A stretch of 64,000 nucleotides of DNA. Origin: an uncultured delta proteobacterium. GTDB taxonomy: Bacteria; Myxococcota_A; Polyangia; Palsa-1104. The DNA is taken from contig CAWAWS010000015.1 of the NCBI GenBank assembly GCA_963785725.1, positions 382,794-446,793 on the forward strand, in the 5' to 3' direction. The position numbers and the translations under genes are program-made. Every line of letters begins with the position of its first letter. Position 1 is the stretch's first letter. A model generated the notes under the pieces. That model was not told the DNA's origin. It saw only the letters and a list, made by a program, of their open reading frames with translations, and did not search any database. Positions 11,405-64,000 of this stretch are shown here, in pieces.

Positions 11405-12373
11405 ATGCCGCAGCTGTTGTCGAAGACCGAGATGCCGCCCGCGTGGAAGCTGGAAGAGGAAATTCAGCGGCTCAAGAAAGAGCGCAACGCCGTCGTTCTC
11501 GCGCACTATTACCAAGAGTCCGAGATTCAGGATCTGGCCGATCACGTCGGCGACAGCCTCGGTCTGGCGCGCGCGGCGCAAAAGGCGGACGCCGATGTCA
11601 TCGCGTTCTGCGGCGTGCACTTCATGGCCGAAGTGGCGAAGATCTTGAACCCCGAGCGCACGGTCGTGCTGCCCGACATGGCGGCCGGCTGCTCGCTCGC
11701 CGACGGCTGTCCGCCCGATCAATTCCGCAAGTTCATCGACGCGCATCCGGGCCACTTCGTCGTCAGCTACATCAACTGCTCGGCGGCGGTGAAGGCGATG
11801 TCGGACGTGATCGTGACGTCGTCGAACGCGGTCAAGATCGTCGAGCAGATTCCGAAGGACACGCCGATCATCTTCGCGCCCGACAAGCATCTCGCGCGCT
11901 TCGTGCAGAAGCAGACCGGTCGCGACATGGTCGTCTGGCAGGGCACCTGCATCGTCCACGAGACCTTCAGCGAGCGGAAAATTCTCGATCTCATCCTGCG
12001 CAATCCGGGCGCCGAGCTCATCGCGCATCCGGAGTGCGAGGAGTCGATCTTGCGCCACGCCAAGTATGTCGGCTCGACGACGGGGCTCATCAAATACGCC
12101 GTGTCATCGCCGGCGCAGACGCTGATCGTGGCCACCGAAGAGGGCGTGTTGCACCAGATGCGCCGCGACGCGCCGGGCAAGATGTTCATCGCCGCCCCGC
12201 CGGAAGACGAGAGCTGCGCCTGCAATCAGTGTCCGCACATGCGCCGCAACACGATGGAGAAGCTCTATTTGTGTCTGCGCGATCTGAAGCCGACGATCGA
12301 GATGGACGAGACCTTGCGGCTGGCAGCCAAGCGTCCCATCGATCGCATGCTGGCGATGTCGACGGGGATCTGA
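11405..12373 (+). CDS. nadA: Quinolinate synthase A
   Basis: [44 protein letters not shown]. Confidence 0.97.
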
Positions 12374-12424: not shown

Positions 12425-12904
12425 GTGAGCACGTTCGACGAGCTGACCGAGTTTCAGGCGCTCAGTATCAAAGTGTCGGACAAGACGGCCAGCGACACCG
12501 AGCGCGCGCGTTGGCGCGATCTGCGCGAGCATTTGCGCGCGGCGACGCCGCCGGTGCCGTCGGCGACGCAAGCCGCGCCGCGGCGAACGCGCAAGCTCAA
12601 GGTCGGCTACGCGGCGATCGAGGAGCTGCACGCGACGTTCACCGAGCAGCTGTCGACGACCGGTCTCGAGCTGCGGCTGCCGGCACACGTCAAGCCGGAC
12701 ACGACGATGCTGGTGCGGCTGGAGTTGGGCGCGCCCGGTCCGCTCAACGTGACGGCGCGGGTGGCGTGGTGCCGTCGCGATGGCGGCCATTTCATCGCCG
12801 CGTTGGAGCTGCTCGGTCTGCGTGCCGACGAGCGCGAGCGAATCGAGGCGTGGCTGATCAGCGCTTCGGATCGAGGTCTCGATCCGTCAGCAGCTCGGAC
12901 GTAG
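12425..12904 (+). CDS. PilZ-like domain protein with N-terminal helical extension (degenerate c-di-GMP motifs)
   Basis: EQLSTTGL, ARVAWCR, ALEL pattern; TGnTAAACT 7 nt before GTG. Confidence 0.75.
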   Translation: MSTFDELTEFQALSIKVSDKTASDTERARWRDLREHLRAATPPVPSATQAAPRRTRKLKVGYAAIEELHATFTEQLSTTGLELRLPAHVKPDTTMLVRLELGAPGPLNVTARVAWCRRDGGHFIAALELLGLRADERERIEAWLISASDRGLDPSAART

Positions 12905-13114
12905 CCGCGCGACCGGGCGCTTTGTCGCGCGCATAACGATCGATGGCGCGCGCTTCGGGCAGCCGCGCGGTCAGCTCTTGCGCGTAGGCGTCGTCGGGGA
13001 AGAGGCTGACGTGCGCGACGTGCAGCGCGCGTAATCGCAATCGCGAGCTCATGAGTGCACTTCCAATGACATCGACAACAACGAGAACGCGCGCGACGAT
13101 CGGCGCGTGAACGG

Positions 13115-13317
13115 AAAAAACCGCAGCTCGCCCCGACGTCGCCGGCATACGCCGACGAGGGGGGCATCGACGTCGCGCGCGACGTCGGGGGAGACTGCGC
13201 GCCGCCGGAGGGGGGTCGGCGGCGTACCAGAAATGTCATCGCCGGCTGCCAAAGACGGCGCGCCAGCCATCGGGGCAATGGCGGCGGCGCGTGCGCTGGC
13301 GGTCGAAAACAACATGA
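13115..13317 (-). ncRNA. Candidate sigma54-dependent structured sRNA with C-run loops (Pxr-like architecture)
   Basis: Successive hairpins with C-rich unpaired segments (TGCCCCG, ACCCCCCTC, CCCCCCTC); terminal long stem followed by TTTTTT at 13115-13120; sigma54 box immediately upstream. Confidence 0.55.
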
Positions 13318-13327
13318 CTCTCACCAA

Positions 13328-13343
13328 AGCAAGTCGCAGGCCG
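13328..13343 (-). promoter_or_regulatory. Sigma54 -24/-12 promoter
   Basis: Minus strand CGGCCTGCGACTTGCT (GG-N10-GC with TTGCT); IHF-like site at 13360-13372 and palindrome GTCAA-N6-TTGAC at 13399-13414 upstream. Confidence 0.6.
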
Positions 13344-13500
13344 TTTGGCGACAGCGGGAATACAGGGGCTTACATCAGCCACAGGCATCCAAAGCGGGGT
13401 CAACTGACCTTGACTGGGGGATTCGATCCACACACGCGAGGTTGCGCACGCGTTCTGTCGTCGTTCGGCTGTCGTTCGGGCAGGCCTGGCGAGCGATTCG

Positions 13501-13515
13501 TGGCACGATAGGCGC
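13501..13515 (+). promoter_or_regulatory. Possible divergent sigma54 promoter for the 13547 lipoprotein gene
   Basis: TGGCACGATAGGCGC: perfect -24 box, weak -12 box. Confidence 0.4.
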
Positions 13516-13546
13516 GCGTGCGTTTGTCACGCCTACGCCCTAGCCT

Positions 13547-14713
13547 ATGTCGACGACGCCTCGCCGCACGCTCGCAGTCACGCTCGTTCTTGCCGCCGTC
13601 GGCTGCCATGCCGAGCATCACGCCGCCACGACCGACATGATGTCGTCGTCGGTGTCGGGCCCGACGCCGCCGGTCGAGCCGCGCGCCGCGACCGATCATC
13701 CAGCGGCGTGGCAGGTTCACGATAACGGCGGTCCGATCCAGCCGGCGCCGCGCGTCTACACCGTCATCTGGCCGGGCTCGGAGCAGATCGGGCAAGAGGT
13801 AGAGCAGTTCGTGAGCTGGATGTTGACGAGCGACTACTTCACGACGTCGCTGGCCGAATATGGTGTCGGCGCCGGGCAGAGCATGGGGCTCATCGTGCTG
13901 CCGAACGCGGCGCCGGCGACGATGATGGACGCCGACATTCAAGCGCTCGTGAAGCAGCTCGTGGAGAACGACCAAGTCGATCCGCAAAACGACGCCAACA
14001 CGCAGGTGGCGTTCATCATTCCGCCCACGACGACGGTCGTGGTGAGCGGCGAATCGACGTGCAATCAGATCGCCGGCTATCACGAGTCGCCGTCGACGTC
14101 GCTGCCGATCATCGCCTACGACGTCATCGCCGATTGCGACACCAGCGCCACCGAGCTCGACGGCCTGACCAAAGTGCTGAGCCACGAGATCGCCGAGGCG
14201 GCGACCGATCCCTTGCCGAACACGGGCTTTGCCGCCGAGCCGCCCAAAGCGCAAGAGATCAGCGATCTGTGTAACTTCGGCGAGGACTTGCCGATCGACG
14301 TGCCCGGTAATCCGCCGCAGCGTTATTGGGTGCAGCGGCAATATTCGAACGCGGCGGCGGTGGCGGGCAATCGCGAGCCGTGTGTGCCGCTGCCGTGGAC
14401 GCGGCCCTATTGGGGCGCCGCGCTCTATCCGCGCACGCAGACGATCGCGACCTCGAAGTCGCCGCAAGTGGTGCAGACGTGGATGGAGCCGTTCGCGTAC
14501 GGCGACGTGGGGACGATCCTGTGGGAAGTGCTCTCCGCGGATGACGGCATCATCGTCGATCCCGAGTCGGGCGTCTCGCAGGCGGGCGACACGATCCCGA
14601 TTCGCGTCACCATCGCCGATCCGTCGAAGCCGCACGTGTACGAGCTCGACATCGAGTCGCAGTCGGCGACGGCCGGCGCGAGCTTGTGGTTCACCTACGT
14701 CGTCGTGCAGTAG
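13547..14713 (+). CDS. Lipoprotein with Phi-1/EXORDIUM-like domain and C-terminal beta domain
   Basis: Lipobox AVGC; NGGPI..P.VY.VIW, GYHE, SHEIAEAATDP, EISDLC motifs. Confidence 0.7.
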   Translation: MSTTPRRTLAVTLVLAAVGCHAEHHAATTDMMSSSVSGPTPPVEPRAATDHPAAWQVHDNGGPIQPAPRVYTVIWPGSEQIGQEVEQFVSWMLTSDYFTTSLAEYGVGAGQSMGLIVLPNAAPATMMDADIQALVKQLVENDQVDPQNDANTQVAFIIPPTTTVVVSGESTCNQIAGYHESPSTSLPIIAYDVIADCDTSATELDGLTKVLSHEIAEAATDPLPNTGFAAEPPKAQEISDLCNFGEDLPIDVPGNPPQRYWVQRQYSNAAAVAGNREPCVPLPWTRPYWGAALYPRTQTIATSKSPQVVQTWMEPFAYGDVGTILWEVLSADDGIIVDPESGVSQAGDTIPIRVTIADPSKPHVYELDIESQSATAGASLWFTYVVVQ

Positions 14714-14717
14714 GCGC

Positions 14718-18486
<3,769 letters not shown>

Positions 18487-60300: not shown

Positions 60301-61646
60301 GCCTGTTGGCGCTGGCCTCCGGCGACGACTCGGGCGCGACCCAGATCAAAGTGCACGAACGGCTGCGCCAGGCGCACGCGCTGACGCCGTCGGACTCAGC
60401 GGCGCTGGTGGCGTTGTGCGACGTCGTCGTCGATCCCGATGCGCTCGGTGCGCGCGGCAAGCTGGCGGAAGGCCCGGCGCAGCTCGAGTGGCTCGTCGAG
60501 CACGCCGAGTCGCTGGAGGCGGTCGGTCGCCTCGCCGAAGCCGCGCAGGCGCTGTCCCGCGCGCTCGAGCTCGACGGCAAATACCTGCCGGCGCTGGAGC
60601 TGGCGCGCCGCTTGGCCCGCGCCGGCGGTGACGACAAGAGCTACGCCGCCGCGACCGCGCGCTTGGCCGGCGAGATCCTCGAAGGCGAGCGCGCGGCGTC
60701 GATTTATCGCGAGGCGGCGCTGGCGTTCGAGCGCGGCGGCGCGCGCAAAGAGGCCGCGGTCGCCTGGCGCGCCGTCCTCGATCGCACGCCGCTCGACGGT
60801 CAGGCCTTCAACCAAGCGCGCGACCTCATGCGGGCGCTGCACAAAGAGGAGTCGGCGCCCGGTCCGCTGGTCGAGCTGTACACGCATCGGCTGGAGCACG
60901 TGCGCGAGGCGGCCGATCGCGTGCGGCTCCTCGTCGAACGCTCGCAGCTGCTCGAGGACGAGGGCGATCGCGACCACGCGCAGCTCGACTTGCGCGCCGT
61001 CCTCGCGCTCGATCCGAGCCAGCCGGACGCGCTGCGCCGGCTCGGCGAGCTGCTGGCGGCGGTGCCGGCCGGTCGTGAAGAGGCGATCGTGCTCCTGTCG
61101 CGCTATCTCGAGGACGAGCACGATTGCGAGCGGCGACGGGCGGGGCTGTTGCGCTTGGCGGAGCTGCAAGAGGCGGCCGGTCGCGGCGAGGAGGCGGTGC
61201 ACCTGCTCGAGCAGACCATCGCGCTCGCGCCGACGCCGGTCGAGTCGCGCGGCGAGCACGAGAAGCTGGCGCAGCTGCTGGTGCGGCAGCGTCATTGGCA
61301 GCAGGCCGTCGACGTCCTGCGCAAGCTGGCCGACCTCTTCCCGGCCGGCAACGAGCGCGCCACGGTGGAAATTCGCGTGGCGACGATCTATCGCGAAGGC
61401 TTCGCCGATCCGCGCGCGGCCGTCGAGGCGCTGTTGCGCGCGCTGCGCTCGGATCCGCTGTCGATGGAGGCGCTCGGCAAGCTGATGCCGCTCGCCGACG
61501 CCGGCCACGTGCTGCCGATCGAGCTCGAGGAGAAGCTCGAGCGCGCCATCGACGAAGCGCGCGGTCAGGCGCTGGCGGCGCCGCTGGCCGTCGAGCCCTA
61601 TACGTCGTTGACGCGCTTGTGGGGCTGGCGCGGCGACGACGTATAG
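57339..61646 (+). CDS. Giant TPR-repeat protein with acidic Pro-rich N-terminus; truncated by the fold-back
   Basis: More than 1400 aa of repeated A..AY..AL...P....A..AL.R helical motifs; the stop codon falls at the inversion junction. Confidence 0.88.
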   Translation: MSTEKDGTEVPPPPDSAEDETFDDVTHVKPLQPPPGAADSARVRLEALSAELDNRPAPPPPVAADEAADAEPETLGDDEVVEEVAEEEVQEFDADDLDEQPSVAAPPPVAALDRAIADAERMLGDEAHHRLSALYERELEALAKGEPDKARTALYQHEIGELTETGAGDEGAAVKAYAKALQSDATLKPNLWAIGRVFERRALWPNLQKLLDAEIRFARTPEEKAELLTEKGVLLEERLDDAAGALECYQKAVEASPQALAAWMALERIFAQQQDLASLARIYRGMADATAEPARKVALLIDLARLQDSLQGGGPDEAHALLREALAIGVDGDRVLDELERLAEQAGGDGHYDMVALLDERAVRLQERAAGLPIEQRIRAAERLVSIRRRQAQIARVRGEDERAWIALQSALQVAPGEMLVVRELGELAEVLGRWDDLADLLAARVEAAPPTRKIALRLERAEALRRAGKFAEADAVEAEVARDEPGHLGLLVSRERAALATRDWERLASLWQAEAELANSDGTPTGTPDPIWAATALVQAAAALADHLQRDTEAHKALGDALTLVPHFAPAVDALERLYARTGKHFEYAALLESELEHSPSPARAERLLEQLIGEREALDDTAGAAQAARRLVALRPDDVRLRVRLYDLDRAAQKLKEASDDLVELAALLPEERRVDVLLDRADLLEHRLNDPVGAAAAYREVLVLRPGDARAAQAFESLSRRRAKDSGPHEAPSPQAWDDLASALRREAQSSLSQERISHALLKLGEIHERERHHFGDAAQAYRDLLDRAPGQAAALRGLQRAQRGLGDDAARAETMEQEAEALPLESRGELLVQLGELFEDGLGQPERADDAYSRALEASPTAHAALGKLRTAVRAREPGAIAEAIGRLDSYVGAEYPTNDNGAARAVLLDERSELGRLAGDQDAIARLATEALALDPHARLPWRMRARLAAQAQQALALGDALAALAERAGDPALQSALARRAGLLALASGDDSGATQIKVHERLRQAHALTPSDSAALVALCDVVVDPDALGARGKLAEGPAQLEWLVEHAESLEAVGRLAEAAQALSRALELDGKYLPALELARRLARAGGDDKSYAAATARLAGEILEGERAASIYREAALAFERGGARKEAAVAWRAVLDRTPLDGQAFNQARDLMRALHKEESAPGPLVELYTHRLEHVREAADRVRLLVERSQLLEDEGDRDHAQLDLRAVLALDPSQPDALRRLGELLAAVPAGREEAIVLLSRYLEDEHDCERRRAGLLRLAELQEAAGRGEEAVHLLEQTIALAPTPVESRGEHEKLAQLLVRQRHWQQAVDVLRKLADLFPAGNERATVEIRVATIYREGFADPRAAVEALLRALRSDPLSMEALGKLMPLADAGHVLPIELEEKLERAIDEARGQALAAPLAVEPYTSLTRLWGWRGDDV

Positions 61647-64000
61647 GGCTCGACGGCCAGCGGCGCCGCCAGCGCCTGACCGCGCGCTTCGTCGATGGCG
61701 CGCTCGAGCTTCTCCTCGAGCTCGATCGGCAGCACGTGGCCGGCGTCGGCGAGCGGCATCAGCTTGCCGAGCGCCTCACGACAGCGGGATCCGAGCGCAG
61801 CGCGCGCGACAGGCTCGACGGCCGCGCAGTCGGCAAAGCCTTCGCGATAGAATCGTCGCCACGCGAATTTCCCGCGTGGCGCGCTCGTTGCCGGCCGGGA
61901 AGAGGTCGGCCAGTTTGCGCAGGACGTCGACGGCCTGCTGCCAATGACGCTGCCGCACCAGCAGCTGCGCCGGCTTCTCGTGCTCGCGGCGTGACTCCGA
62001 CCGGCGTCGGCGCGAGCGCGATGGTCTGCTCGAGCAGGTGCACCGCCTCCTCCGCCGCGAGCGGGCGGGGGGGCGGCTGCGCCAAGCGCAACAGCCCCGC
62101 CCGTCGCCGCTCGCAATCGTCTCGGTCTCGAGATAGCGCGACAGGAGCACAATCGCCTCCTTCACGACCGGCCGGCACCGCCGCCAGCGGCTCGCCGAGC
62201 CGGCGCAGCGCGTCCGGCTGGCTCGGGATCGAGCGCGAGGACGGCGCGCAAGTCGAGCGGGCCGGTAGCAATCGCCCTCGTCCTCGAGCAGCTGCGAGCG
62301 TTCGACGAGGAGCGCGCGCGATCGGCCGCCTGGCGCGTCTAATGCGTGTACAGCTCGACCAGCGGACCGGGCGCCGACTCCTCCTTGTGCAGCGCCCGCA
62401 TGAGGTCGCGCGCTTGGTTGAAGGCCTGACCGTCGAGCGGCGTGCGATCGAGGACGGCGCGCCAGGCGGGAACCGCAGCCTCTTTGCGCGCGGGGGCGGG
62501 TTCGAACGCCAGCGCCGCCTCGCGAATAAATCGACACCGCGCGCTCGCCTTCGAGGATCTCGCCGCCTTTAGCGCGGTCGCGGCGGCGTAGCTCTTGTCG
62601 TCACCGCCGGCGCGGGCCAAGCGGCGCGCCAGCTCCAGCGCCGGCAGGTATTTGCCGTCGAGCTGAAGCGCAACGGACGACGCCTGCGCGGCTTCGGCGA
62701 GGCGACCTGACCGCCTCCAGCGACTGGGCGTGCTCGACGAGCCACTCGAGCTGCGCCGGGCCTTCCGCCAGCTTCCGCGCACCGAGCGCATCGGAATCGA
62801 CGACGACGTCGCACAACGCCACCAGCGCCGCCGAGTCCGACAGCCGTCAGCGCGTGCGCCTGGCGCAGCCGTTGAGTGCACTTTTGATCTGGGTCGCGCC
62901 CGAGTCGTCGCCGGAGGCCAGCGCCAACCAGACCCGCGCGGCGCGCCAGAGCCAACTGCAGCGCCGGATCGCCGGCGCGCTCGGCCAGCGCCGCCAACGC
63001 GTCGCCGGGGACAAGCGCCTGCTGCGCCTGCGCAGGCGGGCGCCGCCGCCGTGCGCCAGGGCCACTTCGCGCGCGGAATCGAGCGCCACGCTTCGGTGGC
63101 CAGCCGGGCGATGGCGTCTTTGATCGCCGGCGAGGCGGCCCGAGCTGGCTGCGCTCGTCGAGCAGGACGGCGCGCGCGGCGCCGTTGTCGTTCGTCGGAT
63201 ATTCGGCGCCGACGTAGCTGTCGAGGCGGCCGATGGCTTCGGCAATCGCGGGGAGGGCGCGCGCCCGCCGCGCCAGTGCGCGATTTGCCGAGCGCGGCGT
63301 GCGCCGTGGGCTGGCTTCGAGCGCGCGGATTGTAAGCGTCGTCGGCGCGCTCGGGGCTGCCCGAGGCCATCTTCGAACAGCTCGCCGAGCTGCACCAAGA
63401 GCTCGCCGCGAGGCTCGAGCGGCAGCGCCTCGGCCTCTTGCTCCATCGTCTCGGCGCGCGCGGCATGGGGCAGCCACTGCAGACGGCGAGGCGCCGCCGC
63501 CTGGCCAGGCGCGCGATGGGGGAGATCGCGATAGGCCTGCGCCGCGTCGCCGAAGTGGTGCCGCTCGCGCTCGTGAATTTCGCCCAGCTTCAAGAGCGCG
63601 TGGCTGATGCGCTCCCTGGCTCAGCAGACACTGCGCCTCGCGAGACGCGGCCAACGCCGAGGAATCGTCCCACGCCTGCGGCGACGGCGCCTCGTGCGGT
63701 CCCGAGTCCTTGGCGCGCCGCCGCGACAGCAACTCGAACGCCTGCGCCGCGCGCGCGTGGCGCCCGGCACAGGACGAGCACTTCACGATGCGCGGCCGCG
63801 GCGCCGACCGGGATCGTTTCAGCCGATGCTCGAGCAATCGGCGCAATCCGGGAGCACGTCGACGCGGCGCTCTTCGGGCGACGGCGCGGCCAGCTCGACC
63901 GGGATGCGTCGCTCGCCTCTTTGAGCTTCTGCGCGGCGCGATGCGAGATGGTAAGAGCCGCACGCGCAGCCGCACGTCGTCGGACAGCGAGGCAACGGTT
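61636..64000 (-). repeat. Inverted, indel-rich copy of ~59240-61608 (fold-back chimera)
   Basis: GTATAGGGCTCGACGGCCAGC at 61641 is the reverse complement of 61583-61603; minus-strand ORF fragments reproduce the TPR protein sequence with many frameshifts. Confidence 0.95.

Follow-up and report, generated by a model that had tools for sequence, protein, structure and literature searches.

A conserved, predicted C-loop RNA element written into a protease linker and kept at a reduced locus without the protease in a genus of Polyangia

A 107-nt RNA element, predicted to form two hairpins with C-rich loops, lies within an 88-codon reading frame (ORF1) behind a predicted sigma54 promoter in the stretch of DNA analysed here (the window, 64,000 nt). 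In relatives of the same genus of soil myxobacteria this element forms part of the coding sequence of a trypsin-like protease. Three stages can be read in public genomes: other genera carry the protease without the element, most of the genus has both, and the present lineage has the element without the protease. Because the element sits inside a reading frame, is constrained at the DNA level and has survived the loss of the protease, it is likely to be a regulatory RNA derived from an mRNA and not a free-standing gene. With confidence somewhat above even, we favour the explanation that the element is an ORF-internal sRNA, which would be cleaved out of its message and pair with G-rich ribosome-binding sites without Hfq. 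An earlier, sequence-only reading of this DNA had proposed a complete, stand-alone, non-coding gene of about 200 nt. This proposal was not borne out, as all 17 related loci are protease coding sequence. The features discussed are listed in Table 1.

Table 1. Position and strand of the features at the reduced locus and around it (window coordinates)
Feature	Position	Strand	Remark
Conserved structured RNA element, SL1 + SL2	13121-13227 (107 nt)	-	Core of the finding
SL1 hairpin, 7-8 bp, loop ACCCCCCUC	13200-13224	-	2 pairs changed on both sides
SL2, ~34-bp bulged stem	13122-13199	-	94% of cells paired; 23/34 pairs never vary
SL2 invariant loop CCCCCCU	13157-13165, including closing pair	-	Caps the long stem
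U-tract, six U	13115-13120	-	GUUUC or GGUUCUU in relatives
ORF1, 88 codons	13049-13315	-	ATG at ~+3 of predicted start; takes the place of the protease gene
Supposed 5' domain	13228-13317	-	Better read as 5' coding part of ORF1
ORF2, 64 aa	12858-13052	-	Start overlaps ORF1 stop (ATGA)
Sigma54 -24/-12 box (predicted)	13328-13343	-	Core invariant in this genome and 7 related loci; inherited from the protease gene
IHF-like site, degenerate	13360-13372	.	3 mismatches to consensus WATCAANNNNTTR
GTCAA-N6-TTGAC palindrome	13399-13414	.	This lineage only
TCCCCC, right half of GGGG..CCCC dyad	13416-13421	-	Dyad kept in relatives and outgroups
PilZ-domain gene, convergent	12425-12904	+	PF07238; end overlaps ORF2
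nadA, synteny marker	11405-12373	+	PF02445; adjoins the protease gene also in genomes G010 and G012
Lipoprotein-like ORF, divergent, 388 aa	13547-14713	+	Synteny marker; no Pfam match

The description of this DNA as encoding structured RNA with C-rich loops held for the 3' half of the proposed transcript. As a whole, the 221 nt reach a folding z of -5.2, a value matched by none of 200 shuffles, and the 3' element (13112-13228) reaches -5.7. The consensus structure obtained with RNAalifold is nearly identical, and the sense strand folds better than the antisense strand in 7 of 7 comparisons (z -3.7 vs -0.8 in locus L017). A terminator for nadA-pilZ on the opposite strand was considered and rejected, since that fold is weaker and has no U-tract. 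Both loops carry C6 in this genome; most relatives have C5 and C6. The SL1 loop has one C more here than in the relatives, so that the element is read in a different frame. The C-run of SL1 has been lost in the sister loci L020 and L031, which belong to one clade, and L031 has a UUCG loop; the SL2 loop is invariant in the five genomes found without the search pattern. Several G-U pairs of the relatives are Watson-Crick pairs in this genome. The stem is followed by six U here and by three in the relatives, and the stem plus T6 was not called by a simple terminator scan. At the place of the U-tract, 9 of 10 relatives have the rare codon GTT, which accounts for only 2 of the 184 Val codons of the protease domain; the U-tract is possibly a cleavage site or a partial terminator. 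A covariance model of the element (R1) found one copy per genome in five genomes of the genus and none in the 37 others of the order.

The host gene was identified by searching 41 genomes with positions 13090-13430, which gave strong matches in four same-genus genomes and only over about 13116-13235, and by recovering metagenome loci with a 26-base pattern. The element lies in frame inside the coding sequence of a protease in 4 of 4 genomes and 13 of 13 metagenome matches. The host gene encodes a trypsin-like protease of 344-380 aa (PF00089), and the element occupies the linker that joins the catalytic domain to a Cys-rich end resembling a membrane anchor. This tail looks like MYXO-CTERM; the sources give this name to some of the homologues, and the MYXO-CTERM model scored below its cut-off in one of the two proteases scanned. 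The start codon of the protease lies at about +4 of the predicted start in all seven loci with the promoter, which would make the message near-leaderless, and near-leaderless starts are also found in the orthologues of the protease. In three other genera, orthologous proteases (53-57% identical) have the promoter and unrelated linkers; all three are flanked by the same lipoprotein-like gene, whose homologues adjoin the protease gene within the genus as well as in the outgroups, and two are also near nadA. No orthologue of the protease was found in the present genome, which is 88% complete; the loss is thus derived. Relocation of the gene within the genome was rejected, as only paralogues of 31-40% identity were found, and an assembly error behind the missing protease and the extra C and T was rejected because contigs of four runs cover the site without gaps, although rpoN and rng are split in this assembly. 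Sigma54-like boxes occur shortly before the start of several trypsin-like protease genes of the family (L044-L046, L048, L055, L058, L067 and L069).

Selection on the element as nucleic acid was assessed in an alignment of 11 protease genes (four genomes and seven metagenome loci), from which five duplicates and an apparent chimera (L030) had been dropped. The element is more conserved than the catalytic domain both in DNA (93% vs 79% identity) and in protein (88% vs 73%). Fourfold-degenerate sites changed 10 times in 28 columns of the element vs 133 times in 103 columns of the domain, and the element lies below every domain window. As seven columns are fixed by the search pattern, the test was repeated without them, and 10 changes were found where 27 were expected (P 0.0005); in the four genomes alone there were 5 where 12 were expected (P 0.003). 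The 34-residue block is gapless in 25 of 25 homologous proteases and its flanking linker is rich in indels. Of 21 substitutions explainable by a single base, 15 leave the fold intact, against an expectation of 46% (P 0.017; P 0.08 when compared with linker-type residues only). Two of the remaining substitutions compensate each other, and one protein implies a joint change of A-U to C-G beside the loop. Over nine distinct DNA rows, 94.9% of cells are paired and three pairs have changed on both sides. However, 27 of the 41 pairs are without variation, and the covariation score was reached by 16 of 500 shuffles and can be yielded by kinship alone, so that covariation by itself is modest evidence. 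Synonymous recoding placed the element at z -1.8 to -3.5, although single windows of the protease domain also reach -2.9 and -3.4.

The present locus provides a comparison across reading frames. The element is translated in another frame here and yet shares 79-90% identity with that of nine relatives (pilZ, 69-75%; nadA, 85-86%), and the flanks of ORF1 barely align. The retention of the element through a change of frame, while its flanks diverged, indicates a constraint independent of the peptide. In close contigs, 8 of 8 element alleles keep the fold (P 0.013); counted by site, 6 of 6 do so where 4.7 were expected, which is not significant (P 0.12). The predicted protein P0006, in which the 3' half of the element is joined to ORF2 without the anchor region, represents a second rearrangement that kept the element. 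These data bear on the view that there is no RNA function at all, and that a Pro/Ser/Gly linker peptide or an inserted repeat folds as a by-product and is now a decaying remnant. Pro and Gly codons do pair by nature, and second positions hardly change in the relatives (2 changes in 34 codons). However, the constraint on synonymous sites, the unrelated linkers in the orthologues of three other genera, the single copy per genome and the sequence kept through the frame change as the flanks diverged have largely refuted this view, and we regard it as very improbable.

Is the reduced locus still coding? Variants of ORF1 were collected from contigs of four soil runs (three studies), in tables that omit differences near contig ends. 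The contigs span 13116-13274 or more without gaps, and one spans all of 13045-13425. There are 24 alleles at 20 sites, of which 16 are synonymous where 8.9 were expected (P 0.002). Counted by site, 12 are synonymous against 7.4 (P 0.025), and none of the other five frames gives a significant value. Outside the element, including the part past the U-tract, 9 of 14 sites are synonymous where 4.8 were expected (P 0.014). The indels listed number none inside ORF1 and four just upstream. A homologue of ORF1, P0001, is 74% identical and has an in-frame insertion; P0017, which was called in another frame, implies 7-9 synonymous among 9-10 changes and one inserted codon, its alleles being partly shared with those above. 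ORF1 matches no Pfam or NCBIfam family. Codon-level conservation of this very frame had been named by the sequence-only reading as the result that would speak against it, and the synonymous excess provides such conservation with moderate strength. The reduced locus thus appears to be still coding, with ORF1 under codon-level selection in close relatives, a conclusion of the same moderate strength.

The 5' half of the proposed transcript fared differently from the 3' half. The TGCCCCG loop of its hairpin is present (13271-13277), but the structure is not conserved: two of three in-stem alleles break the stem, and four of five alleles are synonymous. This part folds at only z -2.4, a value reached by 5 of 200 shuffles, and one related contig carries in it a diverged segment of 83 nt that has the same length. 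The domain is perhaps a remnant of the signal-peptide region, its likeness to signal-peptide DNA being weak (z 0.1-2.0). The flanks of ORF1 were also tried as homologues of the signal-peptide and anchor DNA and rejected, because the likeness was weak throughout. A stand-alone, untranslated sigma54 sRNA of 200 nt that ends at the six U, with ORF1 incidental, would agree with a promoter left intact after the protease had gone, with the lengthening of the U-tract to six and the replacement of several of the relatives' G-U pairs by Watson-Crick pairs, and with the precedent of OxyS, an sRNA that replaced its parent gene (PMC8825220). We nevertheless consider it improbable. The synonymous excess in ORF1 is found outside the element and past the U-tract as well, contigs of four runs show no indel inside ORF1 vs four just upstream, the insertions in P0001 and P0017 are in frame, the start position and the ATGA overlap are kept, and the 5' hairpin is unconserved. 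One of two products of this locus may still be an RNA of 200 nt that stops at the six U.

Every motif named in the sequence-only reading is present on the minus strand at its place, and those upstream of ORF1 differ in their conservation. The predicted sigma54 promoter was well supported: none of its -24/-12 bases varies among the four same-genus genomes, the same box precedes the orthologous protease in three other genera, YGGC-N7-TTGCW occurs twice in the window, and rpoN is present in this genome. The spacing used here is the one typical of sigma54. The palindrome exists as described, but is specific to this lineage and missing from the relatives; as the window holds 157 perfect palindromes of the 5-N6-5 type, seven of them with at least three A/T, it is weak on its own. 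Likewise, the IHF-like site is found where it had been placed, but the window contains 638 such sites with three mismatches to the consensus; a TAA is kept at the same distance in the relatives as the IHF-like site. The GGGG..CCCC dyad is the likelier candidate for an ancestral enhancer site.

Downstream, ORF2 is judged from its sequence to be a real small gene limited to the genus. Its third codon positions changed 91 times vs 54 and 52 times for the other two, and it was found in five genus genomes and one weak match among 301. No family or fold was found for it with Pfam, NCBIfam, ESM Atlas, Foldseek or VIA-align (best Z 2.9; model pLDDT 71). The stop codon upstream, of ORF1 or of the protease, overlaps the start of ORF2 in this genome and in 6 of 10 relatives. 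A gene of about 600 aa is located between nadA and pilZ in loci L017, L019 and L020, and is absent here and in genome G001.

The element and ORF2 co-occur exactly, in the same five genomes, and a role of the element in cis therefore fits as well. It could be a partial terminator, an RNase III/E processing site or a stem protecting the 3' end. In any of these forms it would fix the output of the upstream frame relative to that of ORF2 and would be gated by translating ribosomes. The overlap of the ORF1 or protease stop with the ORF2 start agrees with such a role, as do the fact that the element has remained covered by an open, coupled frame since the protease was lost and the C-loop hairpins found at the 3' ends of genes elsewhere in this genome, one of them followed by a U-tract. 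On the other hand, neither a terminator nor an RNase III site needs an invariant single-stranded C-loop, the relatives have only three U after the stem, termination at this point would leave a protease message without stop codon and anchor, and the terminator scan passed the stem over. We rate the role in cis, the main rival of the favoured explanation, as rather unlikely, though well above a negligible level. Termination of some transcripts at the six U and read-through of others would be compatible with both the trans and the cis readings.

In the favoured explanation, release of a trans-acting RNA, the locus would be transcribed from the sigma54 box under an enhancer-binding protein, ORF1 would be translated from a near-leaderless start and the translation of ORF2 would be coupled to it. 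An RNase of the E/G type would cut at the U-containing flanks and so free a fragment of about 105-115 nt, and partial termination at the six U would here also produce the proposed 200-nt RNA. The C-rich loop would then pair with G-rich ribosome-binding sites of target mRNAs and repress their translation, in the manner of 6C and Pxr. An RNase E/G gene is present in this genome and Hfq was not found in it (88% complete). Together with the invariant C-loop and the U flanks kept through rare codons, these observations fit release and chaperone-free pairing. The free-standing candidate RNA of like layout on contig C7, described below, also speaks for this explanation. The genome contains four complements of loop 2, none of them close to a predicted start, and the complement of loop 1 lies near 3 of 4458 crude starts, with no convincing target among them. 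As for its history, a family-level ancestor would have had the promoter and a protease with an ordinary linker, the element and ORF2 would have arisen in the genus, and the present lineage would have lost the protease domain by deletion but retained the promoter, the element, ORF2 and, between them, a remodelled frame of 88 codons.

The element resembles several known RNAs. By analogy, it would work like 6C or Pxr, but it belongs to neither. Like Pxr (RF01812), it is found in Myxococcota, is preceded by a sigma54 promoter (predicted here) and measures about 108 nt. Pxr has an essential C in a hairpin loop and is processed from longer forms (PMC5684412, PMC5568312, PMC10217877, PMC11928866), and it binds near SD sequences in M. 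xanthus, which lacks Hfq (10.1101/2025.09.11.675593). However, Pxr is intergenic, lies behind pxrK/pxrR and is known from Cystobacterineae, whereas the element is inside a coding sequence in the relatives and near nadA, PilZ and the lipoprotein-like ORF. Pxr also has three stem-loops with the functional C in loop 1, whereas the element has two and its invariant C-loop is the second. The kinship with Pxr that had been raised found no support in Rfam, with no RF01812 match at E up to 10 in 12500-14000; the whole genome had none either, in a search that is weak by itself because the control genomes hold no Pxr. Rfam as a whole gave only chance-level matches for the element.

With 6C RNA (RF01066) the element shares two hairpins with about six C per loop and a high-GC host without Hfq (here, none found). 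6C pairs through its C-loops without chaperones (PMC6486639), and the chaperone-free pairing with G-rich ribosome-binding sites suggested here is proposed by analogy with it. Unlike 6C, the element is nested in a coding frame, has a much longer second stem and lies behind a sigma54 box. The RF01066 model gave no match in this genome at E up to 1, and its control responded in 2 of 14 genomes, below the cut-off. The Streptomyces RNA Scr3202 (RF02833) is grouped with 6C as the closest C-loop RNAs. The CcsR/Cuckoo RNAs with CcaF1 likewise form two hairpins whose loops are anti-SD and share a transcript with the gene of a small protein, and RNase E frees CcsR1 at GUUUCC (PMC8034643), which is the sequence found after the stem in most relatives. 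The loop motif CCUCCUCCC, the tandem copies and the DUF1127 partner of that system are absent here, and the CC3552 model matched the element at chance level (19 bits against a cut-off of 50).

FtsO of E. coli is likewise an RNA inside a coding sequence (ftsI) with an excess of wobble conservation, 91% vs 67%, and is called in its paper the first ORF-internal sRNA with a shown role (PMC7815308). In contrast, FtsO acts as a sponge bound to Hfq and pairs through an unstructured region, whereas the element is highly structured, shapes a linker peptide and has outlived its host protein. OxyS, a fragment of a peroxidase mRNA, kept the parent promoter after the protein was lost (PMC8825220), and out-of-frame remodelled genes draw a new frame from an old gene (PMC8788219). 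Unlike in these cases, both states are alive here in one genus and the reduced locus keeps a selected frame. Documented cases of ORF-internal sRNAs are few, and that an sRNA arose from an mRNA is usually deduced in retrospect. In the literature covered by our search, which lay mostly outside subscription journals, no prior description of the element and no paper on sRNA in Polyangia was found. The element points to C-loop, chaperone-free control by RNA in this group, of a kind that scans of intergenic regions alone would miss.

Other C-loop hairpins were observed in this genome. A free-standing 6C-like candidate with two hairpins, CCCCCC loops and a U-run lies on contig C7 (~516540-516680, plus strand; L158/L161). 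It is 74-77% conserved in three of four genus relatives and in none of 10 other genomes, and matches Scr3202 weakly (24 bits against 52). The ORF downstream of it is presumably metF-like. Two arrays, related to each other and each made up of three or four C-loop hairpins, occupy intergenic sites at C19 78670-78850 (minus strand; L090), where a GH30 gene and a gene for an M24 peptidase flank the array, and at C3 451100-451210 (minus strand; L089), with a decayed copy of the GH30 end. They share 13 nt with the SL2 loop, fold at z -7.3 and were not found in 41 other genomes; Rfam gave nothing above chance for the C19 locus. Their hairpins were tried as homologues of the element and scored 32 (C3) and 24 bits (C19); since a plain palindrome scores 31, homology is not shown. 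Perfect hairpins of 16-17 bp with C-rich loops stand right after stop codons at C15:3979 (plus strand) and C3:35377 (minus strand), the second followed by a U-tract. In this genome CCCCCTC caps a stem of at least 8 pairs in 5 of 126 cases, against a background of 0.6%, two of the five being the present locus and two mutual duplicates.

Wider families were not supported. The loop 12-mer is present in 30 of 42 genomes, but when one match in each of these genomes was examined, from about 90 in total, it formed a hairpin loop in only 4 of 30 loci, where 2.5 were expected; three of the four were already known. A two-loop pattern gave 19 matches in 300 other genomes of the class, against 25 for the reversed control. 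We put forward, tentatively and with less than even confidence, the fullest form of our account. It holds that a 6C-type, Hfq-free RNA was written into the protease linker, its base pairs dictating the peptide, and that the enzyme has since been deleted, with the promoter, the RNA and the coupled small protein kept under a remodelled frame. The element would then be an sRNA gene that has come half the way to independence, and together with the free-standing RNA before metF it would belong to a set of C-loop RNAs in Polyangia that has not been described before.

Some observations concern the surroundings. At 14718-18486 (minus strand) of the window, Ser/Thr kinase and AAA parts stand in two frames, which form a single ORF of 1250 aa in the relatives; the split of these parts, and of the rpoN and rng genes, suggests indel errors of the assembly. 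Beside rng there is a sigma54-type box with a hairpin and a T-run, without a C-loop of this type. Finally, at 61560-61684 of the window an ORF ends in an inverted repeat whose arms, of about 52 bp, match almost perfectly and are separated by a short spacer.
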